A stretch of DNA of 64,000 nucleotides from an uncultured Pseudomonadales bacterium (GTDB taxonomy: Bacteria; Pseudomonadota; Gammaproteobacteria; Pseudomonadales; Cellvibrionaceae), in the NCBI GenBank assembly GCA_947494095.1, contig CANLTI010000023.1, forward strand, positions 123 to 64,122. The letters are read 5' to 3'. Position 1 is the stretch's first letter. Each line of letters begins with the position of its first letter. Below, piece after piece: positions 5,191 to 64,000 of this stretch. A model generated the notes under the pieces. The model searched no databases. It saw nothing but the letters and a program-made list of their open reading frames with translations, and was not told the DNA's origin. The position numbers and the translations under genes were made by a program.

Positions 5191-5449
5191 TCACTACTCA
5201 GACAAAACCCAGCTGGCAGCGTATTGATAAATAGAGTTTCGGCAAGATGCTCGAACGGATGCAGTCTGGCCATGTAACGTTTTGAGCAACATATCGGAGC
5301 AGGAACCCCTTATTAGACATAGCACTTGCACCTGCATAAGGACATGCAAGATTAGACTTTGCAGGAGCATAAAGTCGAGCAGAGGAAGTAGAAAACAAGT
5401 ATTATTCAAAAATGTATTTTGGTAACTATTCAGAGGTACCGAAATTTTG
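5191..5449 (+). repeat. Dispersed modular repeat, chimeric copy (B module + one 33-bp hairpin cassette + D/E modules + IS66-type end)
   Basis: Shares TCGGCAAG..GCTCGAA..CATGTAAC..TTTGAGCAAC with 13690-13745; TGCACCTGCATAAGGACATGCAAGATTAGACTTTGCAGGAGCA..AAGTCGAG with 53697-53795; GTAACTATTCAGAGGTACC at 5422-5440 is the reverse complement of 53842-53860. Confidence 0.85.
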
Positions 5450-5502: not shown

Positions 5503-7413
5503 TTAAAGTAATAAGCGCCTTACGTCGCCCATCACAGTGCTTAAGTAGGTTAAGAACTTACCGGCATCGCTACCGTTTACAGCACGGTGATCGTATGACA
5601 AGCTCAATGGCAGCATCATACGCGGCTCAAAGGCTGCGCCATCCCAAACCGGTTGCATACTGGCTTTAGAGACACCCAAAATTCCGGCTTCAGTGGTACT
5701 TACCATGGGTGTAAAACCCGTGCCGCCCATGGGGCCTAAGCTTGAAATAGTAAAGCAGCCGCCTTGCATTTCGGCAGGTTTTAATTTGCCATCACGGGCT
5801 TTACCCGCTAACTCGATGAGCTCTTTAGCAATTTGGTAAATACCTTTTTGGTCGACATTTTTAATAACTGGTACCATCAAACCACGCGGTGTATCTACGG
5901 CAACAGCAATGTGGATAAACTTTTTCTGAATGATGTGCTCACCATCATTGTGCATAGCCACATTAAAGCTAGGATGCATTTGCAAGGCCGTAGCTGCCGC
6001 TTTAATAATAAAGGGCATAGGCGTGAGCTTAACACCCGATTTTTCGGCTTCAGCTTTCATGCTTTTACGGAAGGCTTCTACATCGGTAATATCAGCGTCA
6101 TCAAACTGCGTAACACGTGGAATATTGAGCCAATTACGGGTCATGGCTTCGGCGGTGAGCTGTTTGATTTTGCTCATTTTAACAAGCTCAACCTCACCAA
6201 ACTTCGCGTAGTCTACCTCGGGCACAGCCGGAATACCCGAGCCACTGGTAACACCACCATTAGCCGCACGTGCATTCATCACTTTGTGCACAAAACCATG
6301 CACATCTTCAAACGATACGCGGCTACGCGTACCAGTCCCTTTTACCTCGGTAAGATCAACACCTAACTGGCGTGCCAACTTACGTACAGCAGGCCCAGCA
6401 TAAACATCACTTGATGAAACGACCACCTCGCTACCTACAACAGCAACCGGCGCCACCTTTGTAGAGGCCGGCACCGAAGAAGGGGCTTGCGCTTTAGGGG
6501 CGCTAGGCGCTGGTGCTGCTACGGGGGCAGAACCAGCGACTTCCATTTGACCAATCACATCACCTTGGCCGGCTTTATCGCCAACTTTAATGCTTAATGC
6601 AGTGATTGTACCGCTCGCAGGTGCGGGGATTTCCATGCTGGCTTTATCTGACTCTAACACGATAAGGCTATCGCCTTCAGCAACGGTATCACCTATGGCT
6701 ACACACACCTCGATAACGTCTACGCCTTCGGCACCGCCAATATCGGGAACCGGTATATCGCGAATACTAGGCGCCGACGCTGCTGTGCTAGGAGCTTGAG
6801 CTGCAGTAGCTGGCGCCGCCGAGGCTGATACTTCTGGGGCGCCGCCTTGGGTGGCCAAGACCAATACCGCAGTACCTTCGCTCGCTTTTTCGCCTTCTTT
6901 AAGGCTTATGCTCATCACCGTGCCATCGGCCGGGGATGGGATATCCATGCTGGCTTTATCGGACTCTAGCACGATAAGGCTATCGCCTTCGCTGACGGTA
7001 TCACCAACGGCAACACAAATTTCAATGACGTCAACACCTTCGGCACCACCAATATCCGGTACCGCTACGGCTAGCTCGTCACTTGAAGAGGCCGATGCAG
7101 CAGGCTCAGAACTAGCAGGCTCAGAACTAGCAGGCTCTGAAGCTGTAACAGGCGCCGCCTCGACAACCGCAGCACCTTCAACTTCTAGCTCAAGCATCGG
7201 TGTACCTTCGGCAACCTTGTCGCCTTCTTTTACCAAAATGGCTTTTACCACACCGCCTTTTGGCGAAGGGATATCCATACTGGCTTTATCCGACTCCAAT
7301 ACCATGACTTCTTGGTCGACGGTGATGGTATCGCCAACGGCAATGCTAATTTCAATCACATCAACGCCTTCTGCGCCGCCAATGTCGGGAACATTAATTG
7401 TTTCAATAGCCAC
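5503..7413 (-). CDS. aceF: Pyruvate dehydrogenase E2 dihydrolipoamide acetyltransferase, three lipoyl domains
   Basis: Three ESDKASM(D/E)IP lipoyl motifs, E3-binding AGPAVRKLAR, catalytic SYDHRAVNG. Confidence 0.97.
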   Translation of the reverse strand: MAIETINVPDIGGAEGVDVIEISIAVGDTITVDQEVMVLESDKASMDIPSPKGGVVKAILVKEGDKVAEGTPMLELEVEGAAVVEAAPVTASEPASSEPASSEPAASASSSDELAVAVPDIGGAEGVDVIEICVAVGDTVSEGDSLIVLESDKASMDIPSPADGTVMSISLKEGEKASEGTAVLVLATQGGAPEVSASAAPATAAQAPSTAASAPSIRDIPVPDIGGAEGVDVIEVCVAIGDTVAEGDSLIVLESDKASMEIPAPASGTITALSIKVGDKAGQGDVIGQMEVAGSAPVAAPAPSAPKAQAPSSVPASTKVAPVAVVGSEVVVSSSDVYAGPAVRKLARQLGVDLTEVKGTGTRSRVSFEDVHGFVHKVMNARAANGGVTSGSGIPAVPEVDYAKFGEVELVKMSKIKQLTAEAMTRNWLNIPRVTQFDDADITDVEAFRKSMKAEAEKSGVKLTPMPFIIKAAATALQMHPSFNVAMHNDGEHIIQKKFIHIAVAVDTPRGLMVPVIKNVDQKGIYQIAKELIELAGKARDGKLKPAEMQGGCFTISSLGPMGGTGFTPMVSTTEAGILGVSKASMQPVWDGAAFEPRMMLPLSLSYDHRAVNGSDAGKFLTYLSTVMGDVRRLLL

Positions 7414-13543: not shown

Positions 13544-13648
13544 TGTTGCCTCAATGTATTGATTAAAGAATCTAGGTATTGAACATCGTGGGACACAATC
13601 TACCCCCAAGAGTTCTCAGTAATCAATACTACACGGGATAAGGGATGA

Positions 13649-13823
13649 GGCAATAATAGTTTGTCCAATGAGGCGTAGGTTTCTGTTTTCTCGGCAAGGC
13701 GCTCGAAGGGGCGTAGCCTGGGCATGTAACACTTTGAGCAACGCATCGGGGCAGGAGCATAATGTCGAGCAGAGGAAGTAGAGAGCACGCATTATTGGAT
13801 CATGTATTTTTCCTCGCCCCTAA
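13649..13823 (+). repeat. Dispersed modular repeat copy (B-D-E modules, no 33-bp cassette)
   Basis: GGCAATAATAGT..TTCTGTTTTCTCGGCAAGGCGCTCGAAGGG..GGGCATGTAAC..ATTATTGGATCATGTATTTTT matches the reverse complement of 38470-38622; GCAGGAGCATAATGTCGAGCAGAGGAAGTAGA matches 5361-5392. Confidence 0.88.
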
Positions 13824-13994: not shown

Positions 13995-14158
13995 AAGTGA
14001 GAGCCGCTGAGGGTGATTCCCTGAGCCGATAAACTTAATCCAGGAGCTCGCTAGCTTATCTTGTGTGCATGTCCGCTTGACGGAAAGCCTAATGGATATC
14101 AGTGTTCTCCCACTTGAACCGTCGGGTTCAAGGCAAGATCCTTCAGTTGCTCTCACTT
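13995..14158 (+). ncRNA. ssrS: 6S RNA
   Basis: Conserved CCCTGAGCCGATA and CTTGAACC..GGGTTCAAGG segments; terminal helix AAGTGAGAGC/GCTCTCACTT; canonical position upstream of ygfA. Confidence 0.92.
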
Positions 14159-25695: not shown

Positions 25696-25764
25696 ACAAT
25701 CTAACAATCTAACAATCTAACAATCTAACAATCTAACAATCTAACAATCTAACAATCTAACAAT
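25696..25764 (+). repeat. Perfect octamer VNTR (ACAATCTA)x8.6
   Basis: Eight perfect units at 25696-25759 plus ACAAT, ending 10 nt before ATG 25775. Confidence 0.98.
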
Positions 25765-25774
25765 TGAGAATATT

Positions 25775-26503
25775 ATGGGGCGAATACATTTTGTAGGCGG
25801 TGAGAAAGGCGGTGTTGGAAAATCGTTGACCTCGCGTTTATTGGCGCAGTATATTATTGATAACAAAAAAGCATTTATTGGCTTCGATACAGACCGTTCA
25901 CACGGCACCTTTTCGCGCTTTTATAGTCAATTTACTAGCCCGATTTTTGTCGAAGATTACGATAGCTTAGATAATATCATTACGGCTGCCGAGCAAAACC
26001 CCGACGCTAATATTATTGTAGATCTTGCGGCACAAACAGCCCGACATTTACATAAATGGATAGAAGACAGTGATATTTTTGGGATTTTTGACAGCCTAGG
26101 GTTTGATGTCTTCATGTGGCATGTCATGGATGATGGTGCAGACTCTGCTCGATTACTTAACACGCTACTCAAAACCTTAACCCAAAGCAGTTTGCAGTTA
26201 GTGGTGGTTAAAAACCTTGGTCGCGGCGAGCATTTTGAATGCTTTGAAGAGTCTGCCATTTATGAAAACGCGATAAAGCTCGGGGCTCACATCATTGAGC
26301 TGCCAGCACTGCATGCTCGTCTCACCCAAAAAGTCGACTTTAATAACAGTAGCTTTTGGGCCGCTGCAAACAACATTAATATTATGACGCTCACAGAGCG
26401 CCATCGCGTTAAAGTGTGGCTTAAGACTATTTATCAAGAGCTCGATAGTGTACTCAGCCATAACGCCAACCTTGCCAGTAGTACTTTATTCACAACAGAA
26501 TAA
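25775..26503 (+). CDS. ParA/MinD-like P-loop ATPase (often labelled 'mobilization protein'), no adjacent partner
   Basis: Deviant Walker A GGEKGGVGKS, FDTDRSH, IIVDLAA Walker B. Confidence 0.8.
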   Translation: MGRIHFVGGEKGGVGKSLTSRLLAQYIIDNKKAFIGFDTDRSHGTFSRFYSQFTSPIFVEDYDSLDNIITAAEQNPDANIIVDLAAQTARHLHKWIEDSDIFGIFDSLGFDVFMWHVMDDGADSARLLNTLLKTLTQSSLQLVVVKNLGRGEHFECFEESAIYENAIKLGAHIIELPALHARLTQKVDFNNSSFWAAANNINIMTLTERHRVKVWLKTIYQELDSVLSHNANLASSTLFTTE

Positions 26504-38469: not shown

Positions 38470-38622
38470 TGAGGAACGAGAAAAAATACATGATCCAATA
38501 ACACGTGTTTTGTGCTTCATCGCCTGCGTTACTCAAAGCGTTACATGCCCGGCATGCGACCCTTCGAGCGCCTTGCCGAGAAAACAGAACCCCCACGTCT
38601 AATTGGATACACTATTATTGCC
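38470..38622 (-). repeat. Dispersed modular repeat copy (B-E modules)
   Basis: Reverse complement GGCAATAATAGTGTATCCAATTAGACGTGGGGGTTCTGTTTTCTCGGCAAGGCGCTCGAAGGG..GGGCATGTAACGCTTTGAG..TTATTGGATCATGTATTTTT matches 13649-13811. Confidence 0.88.
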
Positions 38623-38653
38623 TGGCTCTTAGCTGCTAGCCGCTTGCACCTTT

Positions 38654-38706
38654 AAGCTAACCCTTAGAAGCTAACCCTTAGAAGCTAACCCTTAGAAGCT
38701 AAGCCC
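38654..38706 (+). repeat. 14-bp tandem repeat (AAGCTAACCCTTAG)x3 plus a partial unit
   Basis: Read directly from the sequence. Confidence 0.95.
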
Positions 38707-38919
38707 CTAGCCGTGTATAACGCTCACAGCTATTGCACTCAGCAAGGGAGCTTCACGCAAGGGGTTTCACATTAGGCATTTCACATATAGTCAAATAAAC
38801 TGTTCTCTACCTAGACTTGCCGCTTATGGGTAGACGACTGCTATACTCGCTCTCCTCAAGCCAACAATTGTATAAAATGTGATCCACAAATCCCCATAAA
38901 ATAAGACGAGAGGACGCTT

Positions 38920-46827: not shown

Positions 46828-47009
46828 GTAACACACAGCTTTGTGCTCCTCGACTTTGCGCTCCTGCAAAGTCTAATCTTGCATATCCCTATGCAGGTGC
46901 GCTTTCTAACCCTTGCTTTCCCCTGCAACAAGGCCCGGCGCTTAAATGCCCAAAAAATAACCCACCATCACCCGTCAGGTGTTGTTTTTCAGCTTGGCTG
47001 AATAGTGAC
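46828..47009 (-). mobile_element. Truncated copy of the IS66-ended MITE (left end, one 33-bp cassette, D modules)
   Basis: Reverse complement GTCACTATTCAGCCAAGCTG..TTATTTTTTGGGCATTTAAGCGCC..GCAGGGGAAAGCAAGGG..GCACCTGCATAGGGATATGCAAGATTAGACTTTGCAGGAGCGCAAAGTCGAGGAGCACAAAG is colinear with 53560-53792; no matching TSD. Confidence 0.85.
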
Positions 47010-47057: not shown

Positions 47058-47099
47058 AGACATAAAAAATGCAGCCCTAAGGCTGCATTTTTTATGTCT
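47058..47099. terminator. Terminator of di-heme cytochrome copy 1
   Basis: AGACATAAAAAATGCAGCC-CTAA-GGCTGCATTTTTTATGTCT. Confidence 0.9.
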
Positions 47100-47108
47100 T
47101 GTTTTTAA

Positions 47109-48785
47109 TTATAAGGTTTTCAAAAACTCAACCAAATCCCAGCGCTGTGAATAACTCAAACGCGTACCGTATTCATGGCCTGAGTTGAAGTTACCTTCAC
47201 GCGTAGCATCAAAGTAAAATAACCTAGTGCGTATGTTTTTATATCGCACTTGATGACGATCCGTTTTATAACCTACCGATACCGGGTCAAACTCATAACT
47301 GCCCACCCAGAACGATGACGGGCGCTCTGAAGGCGGCAATAATAGATCATGTAACGTAGGTACCGAGCCATTATGTAGGTAAGGCGATGTCGCCCAAATA
47401 CCTTCTAAGGGCCTCGCTTTGTAACCGGGTACATACGCAGGTGGAGTCACGCCAGGTGCGTAAACACGGAAGCCAGAGTAAACCGCCTGCTGCTGTGGCG
47501 TTAAAGCAGGAGTTGCTGTAAATAATTTACGCACCACACCACCGCCAATGTTAGTCAGTAACGTAGGCCCAAACATTTCTGTTTCGCCGCCCAATAAAGA
47601 AGCCAAACCACCGGTTTTAAAATCGCCCTGTGCATAGATAGTTAAAAACGCATTGGGATCAGTGCCTACTTCGGCTAGCGGTATATTCGTGGTTTTAACA
47701 AACTGCTTGCCAAATGCATTATCAGATGCCGGTGTTAAGGGGTACTGACCTTTTGCATTTTTTAACGCATGGCAGCTGGCACAACTGTAACCGCTCGCAT
47801 CCACTTTATTATAAATAGCACGCCCGCGCTCAGCCGATGCGTGATCGATACGCCCTAAAATATCCTCTGGCCACTGAGGGGCTTTAAGCTCACGTATCCA
47901 TTGTTCCATCAAAAAGACGTTATCTCGACGTACTGATGACTCAAACAAAGTCTCAGGATTTTGTAAGTCTAAACGACCCAATACACCCAATACTTGGCCT
48001 GCGTTACGGCCAAACGGGTTATCGGCATTACCTGTCCACTGCACAGCTTGTAAGTCAGGTGTTCCCCACAAAAACGGATAGCTCACAGGCGCAATAGAAG
48101 GGCGGAAATTCTCTTCGATACCTAAATCATGCTGAAAAACTTCGTTGCGGATACCACTAAAAGCATCAACACGACCAAAACCTGGCTCATGATCTTTAGA
48201 TACACCACGCGTAATTGTGCCATCTAATTCGGCAGCAATTTCTTGCATTTGCGCATACACGGCTTTGCTTTCAGAATAGCTCAGCCTTAAGCGCTTCGCG
48301 AAGCGGCTAAACTTATATCTACTCGCTAAAGTTGCATCTAAAGAGTCGCGCACGGTGCGATACAAGGCAATAAAGTTGCCCATACTGGGTGCGCCATCAA
48401 CACGAACAACACGGTTATTATAAACGAATTGGGCCGTATGACAGGCCGCGCAATTAACACCAATCCAATCGCCCGTTTTAGGGTCTTCATCTTTTACAAA
48501 ACCCACCGGTAAACCATCGGGGTTGGTCAACGGGTCGGGGGCATAGTCGGGCAAATAACCTAACAAGCTAATTTGCTCATTAGAAGATATAAGCTTGTAG
48601 CTTGTCGCCGCTTCCAATGCAAAAAACCACTCATAAGGAATTAACTGACTACCTTGTGAGGTGGTGTAAAATTTTTCACGAAGTTGATTTTCTTCTGTCC
48701 AATTTTGCTCTAAGTACTCGGGCTCTCCCGTACAGCCGGTCAAAAACCCAACAGTTATTACAGCAATAAGTGCTAATCTAGTCAT
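47109..48785 (-). CDS. RoxA-like / di-heme cytochrome c peroxidase-superfamily lipoprotein, copy 1 (start ATG 48785)
   Basis: Lipobox FLTGC; two heme motifs CAACH and CASCH; YKARPLEGIWATSPYLHNGSVPTL and NSGHEYG C-terminal motifs of the RoxA/MauG-like superfamily. Confidence 0.85.
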   Translation of the reverse strand: MTRLALIAVITVGFLTGCTGEPEYLEQNWTEENQLREKFYTTSQGSQLIPYEWFFALEAATSYKLISSNEQISLLGYLPDYAPDPLTNPDGLPVGFVKDEDPKTGDWIGVNCAACHTAQFVYNNRVVRVDGAPSMGNFIALYRTVRDSLDATLASRYKFSRFAKRLRLSYSESKAVYAQMQEIAAELDGTITRGVSKDHEPGFGRVDAFSGIRNEVFQHDLGIEENFRPSIAPVSYPFLWGTPDLQAVQWTGNADNPFGRNAGQVLGVLGRLDLQNPETLFESSVRRDNVFLMEQWIRELKAPQWPEDILGRIDHASAERGRAIYNKVDASGYSCASCHALKNAKGQYPLTPASDNAFGKQFVKTTNIPLAEVGTDPNAFLTIYAQGDFKTGGLASLLGGETEMFGPTLLTNIGGGVVRKLFTATPALTPQQQAVYSGFRVYAPGVTPPAYVPGYKARPLEGIWATSPYLHNGSVPTLHDLLLPPSERPSSFWVGSYEFDPVSVGYKTDRHQVRYKNIRTRLFYFDATREGNFNSGHEYGTRLSYSQRWDLVEFLKTL

Positions 48786-49003: not shown

Positions 49004-49036
49004 AAAAAAAAATGCAGCCCTAAGGCTGCATTTTTT
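49004..49036. terminator. Terminator of di-heme cytochrome copy 2, same hairpin as copy 1
   Basis: AAAAAAAAATGCAGCC-CTAA-GGCTGCATTTTTT. Confidence 0.9.
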
Positions 49037-49061
49037 ACAGATCGTTTTTAATAACCTTTTA

Positions 49062-50750
49062 TTACAAGGTTTTCAAAAACTCAACCAAATCCCAACGCTG
49101 TGAGTAGCTCAAACGCGTACCATATTCATGGCCCGAGTTGTAGTTACCTTCACGCGTGGTATCAAAGCGGAACAGTCTCGCACCAACACCTTTGTATTTG
49201 ATGTAACTACTGCCTGTTTTGTAACCTACCGAAACCGGATCAAACTCTTGACTACCCATCCAGAATATTGAAGGGCGCTCTGAAGGCGGTAATAATAAAT
49301 CGTGCAACGTAGGTACCGATCCATTATGCAAGTAAGGTGATGTCGCCCAAATACCTTCTAAGGGTCTCGCTTTGTAGCCAGGCACATACTTAGGCGGAGT
49401 CACGCCAGGAGCATAAACACGGAAGCCAGAGTAAACCGCTTGCTGTTGAGGCGTTAACGGCTTGTCAGCCGCAAATAATTTTTTAACCGTACCGCCAACA
49501 AGCTGGGTTAACAAGGTAGGTCCTGCCATCTCTGTCTCGCCGCCCAGTAAAGGCGCTAAGTGACCGGTTTTAAACGAGCCTTGATTAAAGATAGTCACAA
49601 TAGCATTGCGGTCTGTACCCACTTCGCTCAAAGGGATGTTCTTTGTTTTAACAAACTGCTTACCAAAAGCGTTATCAGAAGCAGGGGTTAACGGGTACTG
49701 GCCTTTAGCATTCTTTAATGCATGGCAGCTAGCGCAGCTATAACCACTCGCATCAACCTTATTATACAACGCGCGACCACGCGTAGCGGCTGATTGATCA
49801 ATGCGACCTAAAATATTAGCAGGCCATTTAGGTGCCTTAAGCTCACGCACCCACTGCTCCATTAAAAAGACATTTTCTCGACGAACAGACGAGTCAAATA
49901 ATGTCGCTGGGTTTTTAAGATCCAAGCGACCTAACACACCCAGTACTTGGCCAGCATTACGACCGAAGGGGTTGTCGGCATTACCGGTCCACTGAACCGC
50001 CTGCAAATCAGGTGTGCCCCACAAGAACGGGTAGCTCACGGGTGCAATAGAAGGACGGAAGTTATCTTTAACGCCTAAATCATGCTGAAAAATTTCGTTA
50101 CGAATACCACTAAAGGCATCAACACGACCATAACCTGGCTCATGATCTTTAGACACACCACGCGCAATTGTACCGTCTAGCTCTTGGGCTATCGCGGTCA
50201 TTTCAGTGCGTACTTTATTGCTCTGTGACGTATTAAGCCCTAAGCGCCGAGTAAAACGCTTAAATTTGTTTCTATCGGCTAAAGTCGCATCTAATGAATC
50301 GCGAACAGTACGGTATAACTGAATAAAGTTACCCATACTTGGCGCACCATCAATGCGCACAACACGATTATTATAAACAAACTGAGCGGTATGGCAGGCG
50401 GCGCAGTTAACACCAATCCAATCACCTGTTTTGGGGTCTTCGTCTTTAACAAAACCCACCGGTAAACCATCGGGGTTACTCAAAGGGTCTGGAGCATAAT
50501 CAGGCAAGTAACCCAACAGGCTAATTTCTTCATGCGAAGAGATCAGCTTGTGGCTTTTTGCGTTTTCTAATGCAAAGAACCAGTCATAAGGAATTAACTG
50601 GCTACCTTGTGATGTGGTGTAAAACTTTTCGCGAAGTTGATTTTCTTCGGTCCAGTTTTGATCCAAATATTCGGGCTCTCCCGTACACCCAGCTAGAACC
50701 CCAGTGGCCGCTAGAGCGATTAGCGCCAACTTACCCAATCTAATACTCAT
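49062..50750 (-). CDS. RoxA-like / di-heme cytochrome c peroxidase-superfamily lipoprotein, copy 2 (start ATG 50750)
   Basis: Lipobox VLAGC; CAACH and CASCH; colinear with copy 1 over its whole length. Confidence 0.85.
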   Translation of the reverse strand: MSIRLGKLALIALAATGVLAGCTGEPEYLDQNWTEENQLREKFYTTSQGSQLIPYDWFFALENAKSHKLISSHEEISLLGYLPDYAPDPLSNPDGLPVGFVKDEDPKTGDWIGVNCAACHTAQFVYNNRVVRIDGAPSMGNFIQLYRTVRDSLDATLADRNKFKRFTRRLGLNTSQSNKVRTEMTAIAQELDGTIARGVSKDHEPGYGRVDAFSGIRNEIFQHDLGVKDNFRPSIAPVSYPFLWGTPDLQAVQWTGNADNPFGRNAGQVLGVLGRLDLKNPATLFDSSVRRENVFLMEQWVRELKAPKWPANILGRIDQSAATRGRALYNKVDASGYSCASCHALKNAKGQYPLTPASDNAFGKQFVKTKNIPLSEVGTDRNAIVTIFNQGSFKTGHLAPLLGGETEMAGPTLLTQLVGGTVKKLFAADKPLTPQQQAVYSGFRVYAPGVTPPKYVPGYKARPLEGIWATSPYLHNGSVPTLHDLLLPPSERPSIFWMGSQEFDPVSVGYKTGSSYIKYKGVGARLFRFDTTREGNYNSGHEYGTRLSYSQRWDLVEFLKTL

Positions 50751-53396: not shown

Positions 53397-53559
53397 TACG
53401 ACTGTAAATTAAGAGTGCTGAGGATTAACAGCCTCAGTCAACTCTCACCCTCTCTCAAAAAAGCGTGTCGCAAGCAATGAGCCCATAGAAGCTCGATCCA
53501 TCACAAACAAGAATAGGACCGGTCAATCACGTCGTGTACTCCATTTAGCTTGATTTAGG

Positions 53560-53860
53560 GTAACTATTCAGCTCAACTGACAAGCCTCACCTGATAGAGT
53601 GCTGATGGATTATTTTCTGGGCATTTACGCGCCGACCTTGCAGGGAAAGCAGAGGGTCGACAGTGCACTTGCATGGGGGTATGCAAGATTAGACTTTGCA
53701 CCTGCATAGGGATATGCAAGATTAGACTTTGCACCTGCATAGGGATATGCAAGATTAGACCTTGCAGGAGCACAAAGTCGAGGAGCACAAAGTCGCAGAT
53801 CGCTGAGCGGCCCAGTCAATGAGTCATTAGCGCCCAATTTTGGTACCTCTGAATAGTTAC
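53560..53860 (+). mobile_element. Complete 301-bp non-autonomous MITE with IS66-type ends and 8-bp target-site duplication
   Basis: 12-bp perfect TIR GTAACTATTCAG (53560-71) / CTGAATAGTTAC (53849-60); flanking direct repeat GATTTAGG (53552-59, 53861-68); internal 3x33-bp and 2x15-bp tandem units. Confidence 0.88.
53664..53762 (+). repeat. Three tandem 33-bp hairpin units (consensus TGCACCTGCATAGGGATATGCAAGATTAGACTT)
   Basis: Units at 53664-96, 53697-729 and 53730-62. Confidence 0.95.
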
Positions 53861-54012
53861 GATTTAGGGTTGTTTACCTTAAATGAAACAAAAGCATCGA
53901 GCTTCACCTCCCACTATCTTTGCTACACTTTAAAAACCACATCACAAATATGTGAATTTATTACCTCATAAGCTAACGCAATGAACAATAACGGCCGTTG
54001 AGAAGAGGTAAA

Positions 54013-63968: not shown

Positions 63969-63995
63969 CTAACTTACTTCAGAGGTACCACAATT
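63969..63995 (+). repeat. Degenerate right-end fragment of the IS66-type MITE at the window edge
   Basis: CTAACTTACTTCAGAGGTACCACAATT versus GTAACTATTCAGAGGTACCAAAATT. Confidence 0.55.
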
Positions 63996-64000
63996 CGGAG

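Follow-up and report, generated by a model that had tools for sequence, protein, structure and literature searches.

A recently inserted MITE with a variable array of hairpin cassettes in a Marinagarivorans species, with plausible IS66 parentage

The window, that is, the whole stretch of 64,000 nucleotides analyzed here, carries at positions 53560 to 53860 a MITE copy of 301 bp, which has no gene inside and contains three tandem 33-bp hairpin units. Its left end is formed by the TIR GTAACTATTCAG (53560 to 53571, + strand) and its right end by a TIR at 53849 to 53860 on the − strand (CTGAATAGTTAC when read on the + strand); the two are 100% complementary (12/12), and the boundaries seen across multiple copies fall exactly at 53560 and 53860. 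The element is bordered by an 8-bp target-site duplication, GATTTAGG, whose left copy (53552 to 53559) is matched exactly by the right copy (53861 to 53868), and relatives without the element have a single copy, GACTTAGG, at this place. A gene for a PTPS-like protein flanks the element. According to the original prediction, the locus holds a complete MITE without transposase, with a TIR, an 8-bp duplication, and three 33-bp units; all three features are present where they had been placed, and the absence of a transposase was borne out, the longest open reading frames being of 71 aa and without homologues apart from two short open reading frames.

Modules that occur in all copies lie at the two ends of the element. 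The left-end module of about 75 bp (53560 to 53634, + strand) was detected in every copy with an nhmmer model of eight left ends at E values of 1e-15 to 1e-23, and the right-end module of about 57 bp (53804 to 53860, + strand) at nhmmer E values of 1e-13 to 1e-19. A subterminal inverted repeat at 53599 to 53622 (+ strand) pairs with 53811 to 53834 in both RNA and DNA folds, and the right-end profile matches left ends in reverse (nhmmer E value of 1.4e-3 for the window copy and 1.4e-4 for L003), from which it follows that the ends of the MITE are gapped imperfect inverted repeats of about 55 to 60 bp, extending beyond the perfect 12-bp TIR. Between the end modules, positions 53634 to 53663 (+ strand) hold a degenerate first hairpin unit of the CCTTGC-AGGGAAA-GCAAGG type followed by GTTAGACAGTGCA, which was recognized by folding and by comparison with 46895 to 46935 (− strand), L003, and L005, and whose stem is damaged in the window copy. 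The three tandem hairpin cassettes, of the form TGCA-CYTGCAT-loop-ATGCAAG-ATTAGACTT, occupy 53664 to 53762 (+ strand) and were delimited by Tandem Repeats Finder (period 33, 3.1 copies, 94% matches, 53664 to 53766), by a table of the units, and by folds. Units 2 and 3 have a single difference, at position 53761, which points to a very recent 33-bp duplication. The cassettes are followed at 53766 to 53795 (+ strand) by two tandem 15-bp units, AGGAGCACAAAGTCG, which were identified by Tandem Repeats Finder and which represent, by depth, the most abundant block of the element and also occur in a second repeat family described below. Over the window, the hairpin motif CYTGCAT-N6-ATGCAAG gives 14 strand matches versus 1.45 expected.

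For a depth profile, the contigs of eight public sequencing runs were aligned to the locus. In all eight runs, the flanks have a depth of about 4 to 36x, and a step at precisely 53560 and 53860 brings it to hundreds or thousands; past these boundaries, the sequences are diverse and AT-rich. In run X11, the depth is about 9,570 at the left end and 8,890 at the right end versus 36 in the flank (8.2-kb contig), corresponding to about 245 to 265 copy equivalents, while the 15-mer block reaches about 11,050, or about 305 flank equivalents; run X15, a lower-coverage run from the same organism, gives about 466/5.7 at the left and 556/5.7 at the right, corresponding to about 80 to 100. By these depth ratios, the MITE family is present at roughly 100 to 250 copies per genome, and the abundance originally claimed is confirmed by element-to-flank ratios of about 80 to 265 (X15 and X11). 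Marinagarivorans algicola Z1 contributes another three complete copies (235, 160, and 196 bp), each with an 8-bp duplication (GATGTTAT, 8/8; GAAGTATT/GAAGTCTT, 7/8; ACCGCGTT/ACCGCGCT, 7/8), and these supply the other duplication-flanked copies that had been proposed as a check. The length of the duplication is constant in the four complete copies (8/8, 8/8, 7/8, and 7/8), whereas the older copies L005 and L007 have no recognizable target duplication. The lengths of the other copies of the family range from 160 to 286 bp.

The empty site, which had likewise been set as a check, is present in relatives that are about 93% identical to the window. In the Logan contig L006, ...CTGACTTAGG is joined directly to ATTCTTACC... 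(ATTCTTACCTTAAT...), so that the target occurs once and the element is missing; the empty-site joint from 53559 to 53882 is found in the five runs X5, X6, X11, X13, and X15. The filled left junction is found in X1 and X2, which represent the closest population. Since relatives at this distance retain the unoccupied site, the insertion of the window copy is recent. Presence and absence also differ at other loci, as the window lacks a counterpart of a degraded Z1 copy (L007, 8124 to 8386) and L008 lacks one of the window copy at 46839 to 47009. The region from 53560 to 53860 is a recently inserted copy of a non-autonomous mobile element, a MITE. One could instead read it as not mobile at all, either as a conserved intergenic regulatory or structural repeat or as a chance association of inverted and direct repeats, and it is true that about three 12-bp inverted repeats per window are expected by chance; such perfect repeats, taken alone and within 60 to 600 bp, are not above chance in number (2 observed versus 3.4 expected per window). 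However, 0 of 200 shuffles produced such an inverted repeat with an exact 8-bp duplication on its flanks, the site in relatives is precisely empty, hundreds of copies with unrelated flanks share sharp boundaries, and three other copies have duplications of their own. The non-mobile reading, to which we assign a negligible probability, is effectively refuted by the empty site together with the other duplication-flanked copies.

The proteins encoded in the window cluster at identities of at least 90% with those of M. algicola, and on this sequence basis the host is a Marinagarivorans species. Of 185,579 species genomes (GTDB), only that of M. algicola Z1 contains the right-end 19-mer, at three loci. 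In the JGI metagenomes, the same 19-mer gave one match, in an AT-rich coding region and attributable to chance; the whole element and the left-end consensus, compared with 72,556 plasmids, returned nothing or chance matches of 20 to 24 nt (in fanC and similar genes), and a cassette 20-mer had no match among viral contigs. Across the species genomes, JGI metagenomes, plasmids, and viral contigs searched, the MITE family thus appears to be confined to the Marinagarivorans lineage. Our literature search found no paper that describes repeats of this genus, and Rfam holds no corresponding family, in line with the earlier description of the family as probably undescribed. We conclude that it is an undescribed and lineage-restricted family but an ordinary kind of element.

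Seven related pieces had been counted in the window. The pieces exist, but they belong to two distinct repeat families which have only the cassette/15-mer block in common. Family 1, the GTAAC-ended MITE, accounts for four of them: the copy at 53560 to 53860, a truncated copy at 46839 to 47009, a fragment at 5422 to 5446, and a decayed copy at the end of the window. The truncated copy (− strand) consists of a left end (GTCACTATTCAG...), the degenerate unit, one cassette, and two 15-mers, has no right end, and begins 15 nt past the stop codon of a TgpA-like gene. An alteration of the C terminus of the TgpA-like protein by this copy was considered and rejected, since both the length and the sequence match those of the M. 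algicola orthologue. The piece at 5422 to 5446 (− strand) is a 25-bp right-end fragment which abuts and truncates a family-2 element, and at positions 63973 to 64000 (− strand) begins a decayed copy, about 100 bp long, which runs off the end of the window and continues in the Logan contig L009.

Family 2 comprises the pieces at 5239 to 5420, 13642 to 13820, and 38477 to 38623. The first of these contains one hairpin cassette and a 15-mer (5326 to 5382, + strand; 15-mer at 5367 to 5382), and the 15-mer block is also found at 13751 to 13767, so that the three copies in the window have 15-mer counts of 0, 1, or 1 and cassette counts of 0, 0, or 1. Compared with the orthologous Z1 sequence, a family-2 insertion reads GGGA-TAA-GGGATGAGGCAAT...CCTCGCCCC-TAA-AGTAAG and the empty site GGGA-TAA-AGTCAG, and the consensus termini from metagenome loose ends read ...TTA-GGGGCGAGGCAATAATAG...CCTCGTCCC-TTA. 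Because of this clean insertion and these consensus termini, family 2 is an independent MITE with GGGG-type GGGGCGAGG ends and a 3-bp TAA (TWA) duplication; its depth ratio in X11 corresponds to about 120 to 340 copies. Families 1 and 2 have no sequence in common except ATTAGACTTTGCAGGAGCAYAAAGTCG and, in the copy at 5326 to 5359, one cassette. Homology between the families outside the block was considered on account of two weak local matches, whose p of about 0.02 is uncorrected for the 20 tests made, and was rejected. The modules had been called interchangeable, which is correct as a description, since the same block occurs in two MITE families. The simplest cause would be recombination between elements at a common motif, by which the cassette/15-mer block may have been moved into an unrelated MITE family. 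All copies are intergenic, as had been claimed, while their placement mostly after stop codons holds in part: two pieces start 11 to 15 nt past a stop codon and one 164 nt past, but one lies beyond a terminator and two lie upstream of gene starts.

The copies of family 1 share the two end modules and differ in the middle. Long forms (the copies at 53560 and 46839 to 47009, L003a, and L005) have the degenerate first hairpin unit, one to three cassettes, and 15-mers, whereas the short forms of Z1 have neither hairpin units, cassettes, nor 15-mers and instead contain GGAGTGCTTAT and ATAGCGCCCAT, each twice in tandem. The variation in cassette number described originally, from 0 to 3 among copies, was recovered, with one cassette at 46869 to 46901 and, inside family-2 copies, one at 5327 to 5359 and none at about 13750. 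The metagenome contigs contain numerous alternative joints between 53627 to 53635 and 53685 to 53828. Such differences are what one would expect from slipped-strand duplication or unequal recombination acting on sequence that is dispensable for transposition. An interior that is not needed for transposition would evolve freely, and tandem duplications of 11, 15, and 33 bp, arising through slipped-strand replication or unequal recombination, would produce the 0 to 3 hairpin cassettes observed per copy.

A 7-bp stem had been attributed to each cassette unit. The stem is perfect in unit 1, but in units 2 and 3 a C.A mismatch interrupts it at position 2 on the + strand. The hairpin units fold weakly, at −6.1 to −9.3 kcal/mol, and the majority unit, represented by units 2 and 3, has a z score of −0.9 on the + strand, where it carries the C.A mismatch, and of −2.1 on the − strand, where it carries a G.U wobble. 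Among 10 units, substitutions affect 7 of 140 stem positions (5%), 5 of 130 positions of the non-pairing spacers (3.8%), and 8 of 60 loop positions. The stem changes either break pairs or form wobbles on one strand or the other, inconsistently, and no compensatory change was found in the stems of these 10 units, which are a small sample. Population variants include a loop G>A at 53742 (15 to 40%) and a stem A>G at 53751 (2 to 15%). The loops are hypervariable, and the stems are no better kept than the unpaired spacer, with no covariation support for a selected structure. For the proposed check on stem conservation, this means that the loops do vary more than the stems, but that the spacers of these 10 units are at least as well kept as the stems. 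At the gathering score, Rfam gave no match to the element (one noise match had an E value of 3.5), and no terminator or promoter pattern was found within it. A search of RNA sequencing runs for the locus returned none that contains it.

The 33-nt unit keeps an open reading frame, in which repeats of AKSNLAYPYAG had been read. When the 70- to 71-aa open reading frames across the element were compared with 5.8 billion proteins, only two short open reading frames matched, one of which, P0001, belongs to a different copy of the element. AKSNLAYPYAG as a protein insertion or family was rejected, as these two were the only matches and one was confirmed on an element copy; the reading frame corresponds to no protein family among the 5.8 billion proteins. 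On this result, the in-frame repeat is a by-product of the 33-nt period. For annotation, it follows that the 70- to 71-aa open reading frames spanning the element are not to be called as genes.

The original prediction further considered the element as possibly domesticated for RNA processing or protein binding, which is unsupported here, given stems that vary about as much as the spacers, no compensatory change, and weak hairpins. Most simply, the 33-nt hairpins are a passenger structure whose effect on neighboring transcripts, if any, is a by-product. The rival reading is that a MITE with a hairpin array and a 15-mer block has been co-opted by the host, as for REP/BIME, BOX, and Correia elements, to serve as an RNA stabilizer or processing site in 3'-UTRs or as a protein-binding site. 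Such co-option would explain why the block is retained and has spread over two repeat families, and it can draw on the block being the most abundant part of the element (the X11 value given above) and occurring in two unrelated families, on the loops varying more than the stems, with the loop site 53742 at 15 to 40% G>A, on the intergenic position of all copies, two of which begin just past stop codons, and on the majority unit keeping a G.U pair rather than a mismatch on the − strand. However, the stems are no better conserved than the spacers (5% versus 3.8%), not one compensatory double change occurs in the 10 units, where stem changes break pairs or wobble inconsistently, the hairpins are weak (z of −0.9 for the majority unit on the + strand), no Rfam match and no terminator or promoter signal were obtained, copies sit both upstream and downstream of genes, and the cassettes are absent altogether from many members of the family. 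We therefore consider co-option improbable. A more far-reaching proposal, which we hold to be very improbable, is that the cassette and the ATTAGACTTTGCAGGAGCAYAAAGTCG block form a portable functional module which two or more unrelated MITE families, one with GTAAC ends and an 8-bp duplication and one with GGGGCGAGG ends and a 3-bp TAA duplication, carry and have amplified, to about 300 copies per genome. Its role could be RNA 3'-end protection or processing or the binding of a host protein, and, if the proposal were true, this would be a MITE-borne regulatory cassette system with an expandable copy number.

Concerning the mobilizing enzyme, GTAAC is found at both ends of the window copy and in most copies, in agreement with the GTAA termini of IS66, and the 8-bp direct repeats agree with those of IS66 as well. 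No other bacterial IS family in the ISfinder family table is known to combine GTAA ends with 8-bp duplications, and other IS families with 8-bp duplications end in GG.., CC.., or CAGGG... Since no other family is known to pair the two features, IS66/ISBst12 is the best candidate, and an IS66-family enzyme is deemed the most likely mobilizing partner of the MITE, with a chance that we put at about even. The hallmarks of IS66 are inverted repeats of 20 to 30 bp beginning GTAAGCG and 8-bp direct repeats (PMC11946415); published examples of its inverted repeats are GTAAGCGTCCGGCGAACTCACCTT and GTAACCGTCCGGGCA (PMC12888890), so that in the literature the repeats begin GTAAGCG... or GTAACCGTCC... 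(PMC11946415, PMC12888890). Against these, the ends of the MITE have only GTAAC in common with GTAACCGTCCGGGCA, and GTAAGCG is unmatched. The description of the element as IS66-derived is plausible from the GTAA ends and the 8-bp duplications, but the likeness to the quoted inverted repeats does not extend beyond GTAAC, and we count these termini against the IS66 link.

No transposase Pfam match, no IS66 tnpA/tnpB/tnpC partner, and no autonomous element with the ends of the MITE was found in about 237 kb of window and lineage loci, where the called genes were searched with Pfam and the large open reading frames of L001 to L003 were inspected by eye only, and the IS ends had no match in 72,556 plasmids. 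A transposase of a non-IS66 family that makes 8-bp duplications (IS1595, ISL3, IS256-type, or undescribed) could be responsible, with GTAA being coincidental. This is suggested by the mere 5 nt, GTAAC, in common with any published IS66 inverted repeat (PMC12888890), by the missing canonical GTAAGCG (PMC11946415), by long imperfect inverted repeats of about 55 to 60 bp versus the 20 to 30 bp typical of IS66, and by the lack of an IS66 element in the same 237 kb, searched as described. Set against it is the pairing of GTAA with 8-bp duplications, which is not known outside IS66/ISBst12, the other 8-bp families having different ends, and we regard a non-IS66 enzyme as possible but doubtful. If the IS66 link were confirmed, the family would stand as a well-documented IS66-type MITE that reaches hundreds of copies.

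Taking these results together, we think it probable that the region from 53560 to 53860 is a copy of a lineage-specific MITE of Marinagarivorans, a non-autonomous cut-and-paste DNA transposon with passenger hairpins. According to this explanation, a DDE transposase acting in trans would bind the GTAAC termini and make 8-bp staggered cuts. Counted against it are the failure to find an autonomous element with these ends, the right-end 19-mer occurring only in M. algicola Z1 among the species genomes searched; the higher variation of loops than of stems (8/60 versus 7/140), which could reflect constraint on the stems; and the block being the most abundant part and occurring in two families, which is not obviously predicted by neutral drift.

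The family matters as an undescribed MITE that is active now or was so very recently, as judged from a site filled or empty in close relatives, and its host genus, one of marine polysaccharide degraders, is understudied. Together with the second abundant MITE, family 1 fragments short-read assemblies, and Logan contigs end at its copies. That two MITE families which differ in their transposition signatures contain one and the same internal block is a natural example of modules being exchanged among non-autonomous elements; it can serve to test whether passengers of this kind are under selection and is the one feature here that goes beyond the ordinary. Overall, we describe a MITE family with a BOX-like variable tandem module, for which IS66 parentage is plausible.

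Among known systems, IS66 insertion sequences and their deletion derivatives resemble the family in the GTAA termini and in the 8-bp duplication seen in four MITE copies, and the small size of the MITE and its lack of a gene imply that transposase is needed in trans. Unlike IS66, the element ends in GTAACTATTCAG, of which only 12 bp are perfect before the gapped imperfect inverted repeat of about 55 to 60 bp begins. The BOX elements of Streptococcus pneumoniae have the structure boxA-(boxB)n-boxC and are intergenic, highly repeated, and predicted to form stem-loops. They combine fixed end modules with a short internal tandem module in variable number, as in the present family; however, there is no sequence relationship, the MITE family has TIRs, 8-bp duplications, and an empty site, and its repeat unit is of 33 bp and forms its own hairpin. 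The Correia/NEMIS elements of Neisseria and the RUP elements, classical bacterial MITEs, are comparable in their length of 100 to 300 bp, TIRs, target duplications, hundreds of intergenic copies, insertion polymorphism between strains, and size variants due to internal insertions and deletions. In both Correia and RUP elements, the duplicated target is TA and the transposases of origin are of other types, and an internal tandem hairpin array is not known as a feature of these families. For Correia elements, RNase III processing and promoter effects are documented, whereas the Marinagarivorans MITE gave no evidence of either. Finally, REP/BIME sequences resemble the cassettes in being palindromic units of about 33 to 35 nt which are sometimes arrayed and lie in intergenic regions or 3'-UTRs. 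REPs, however, have neither TIRs nor target duplications, and the transposases associated with them are IS200/IS605-like RAYTs, whereas the hairpins described here are internal passengers of an element with TIRs and target-site duplications and are arranged as direct tandem repeats.

Copies of two MITE families, the 301-bp element (window 53560-53860) and a second family with three copies in the window, repeatedly form the end points of the short-read contigs of the Marinagarivorans lineage (Logan contigs L006 and L009 to L011, and other contig pieces), which makes the two MITEs a main reason why Marinagarivorans metagenome bins assemble into fragments. In the M. algicola Z1 locus L002, the right end of a copy of the 301-bp family contains an internal duplication of subterminal sequence (6088-6132; CGGTACCTCTTAT CGGTACCTCTGAATAGTTAC), which is a further case of short tandem duplication within this family.

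The window also harbors a 6S RNA gene, ssrS (13998-14156, plus strand; Rfam RF00013, 55.4 bits), immediately followed downstream by a 5-formyltetrahydrofolate cyclo-ligase gene, whose mechanically called ORF start at 14065 falls within ssrS and is probably placed too far upstream. Two neighboring paralogous genes on the minus strand (47064-48750 and 49007-50703) encode RoxA-like cytochrome c proteins and share 78.5% DNA identity over 1.7 kb; similar palindromic terminators lie downstream of them, one after each gene (47058-47099 and 49007-49036). A perfect 8-bp microsatellite, ACAATCTA x 8.6, occupies the intergenic tract 25696-25764 upstream of the gene at 25775 and could be slippage-prone. 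At 38654-38710, 3.5 tandem copies of the 14-bp unit AAGCTAACCCTTAG directly adjoin one copy of the second MITE family.

That copy lies at 38477-38623 (minus strand), and the other two are located at 5239-5420 and 13642-13820. This family is separate from and unrelated to the 301-bp MITE, the block of the 33-bp hairpin cassette and 15-bp unit being the sole part common to both. According to the ratio of element to flank depth in the public sequencing run X11, its copy number is ~120-340, and M. algicola Z1 carries an orthologous site that is empty of the insertion. With consensus termini GGGGCGAGG...CCTCGYCCC and a 3-bp target duplication (TAA/TTA), its signature looks IS5-superfamily-like.
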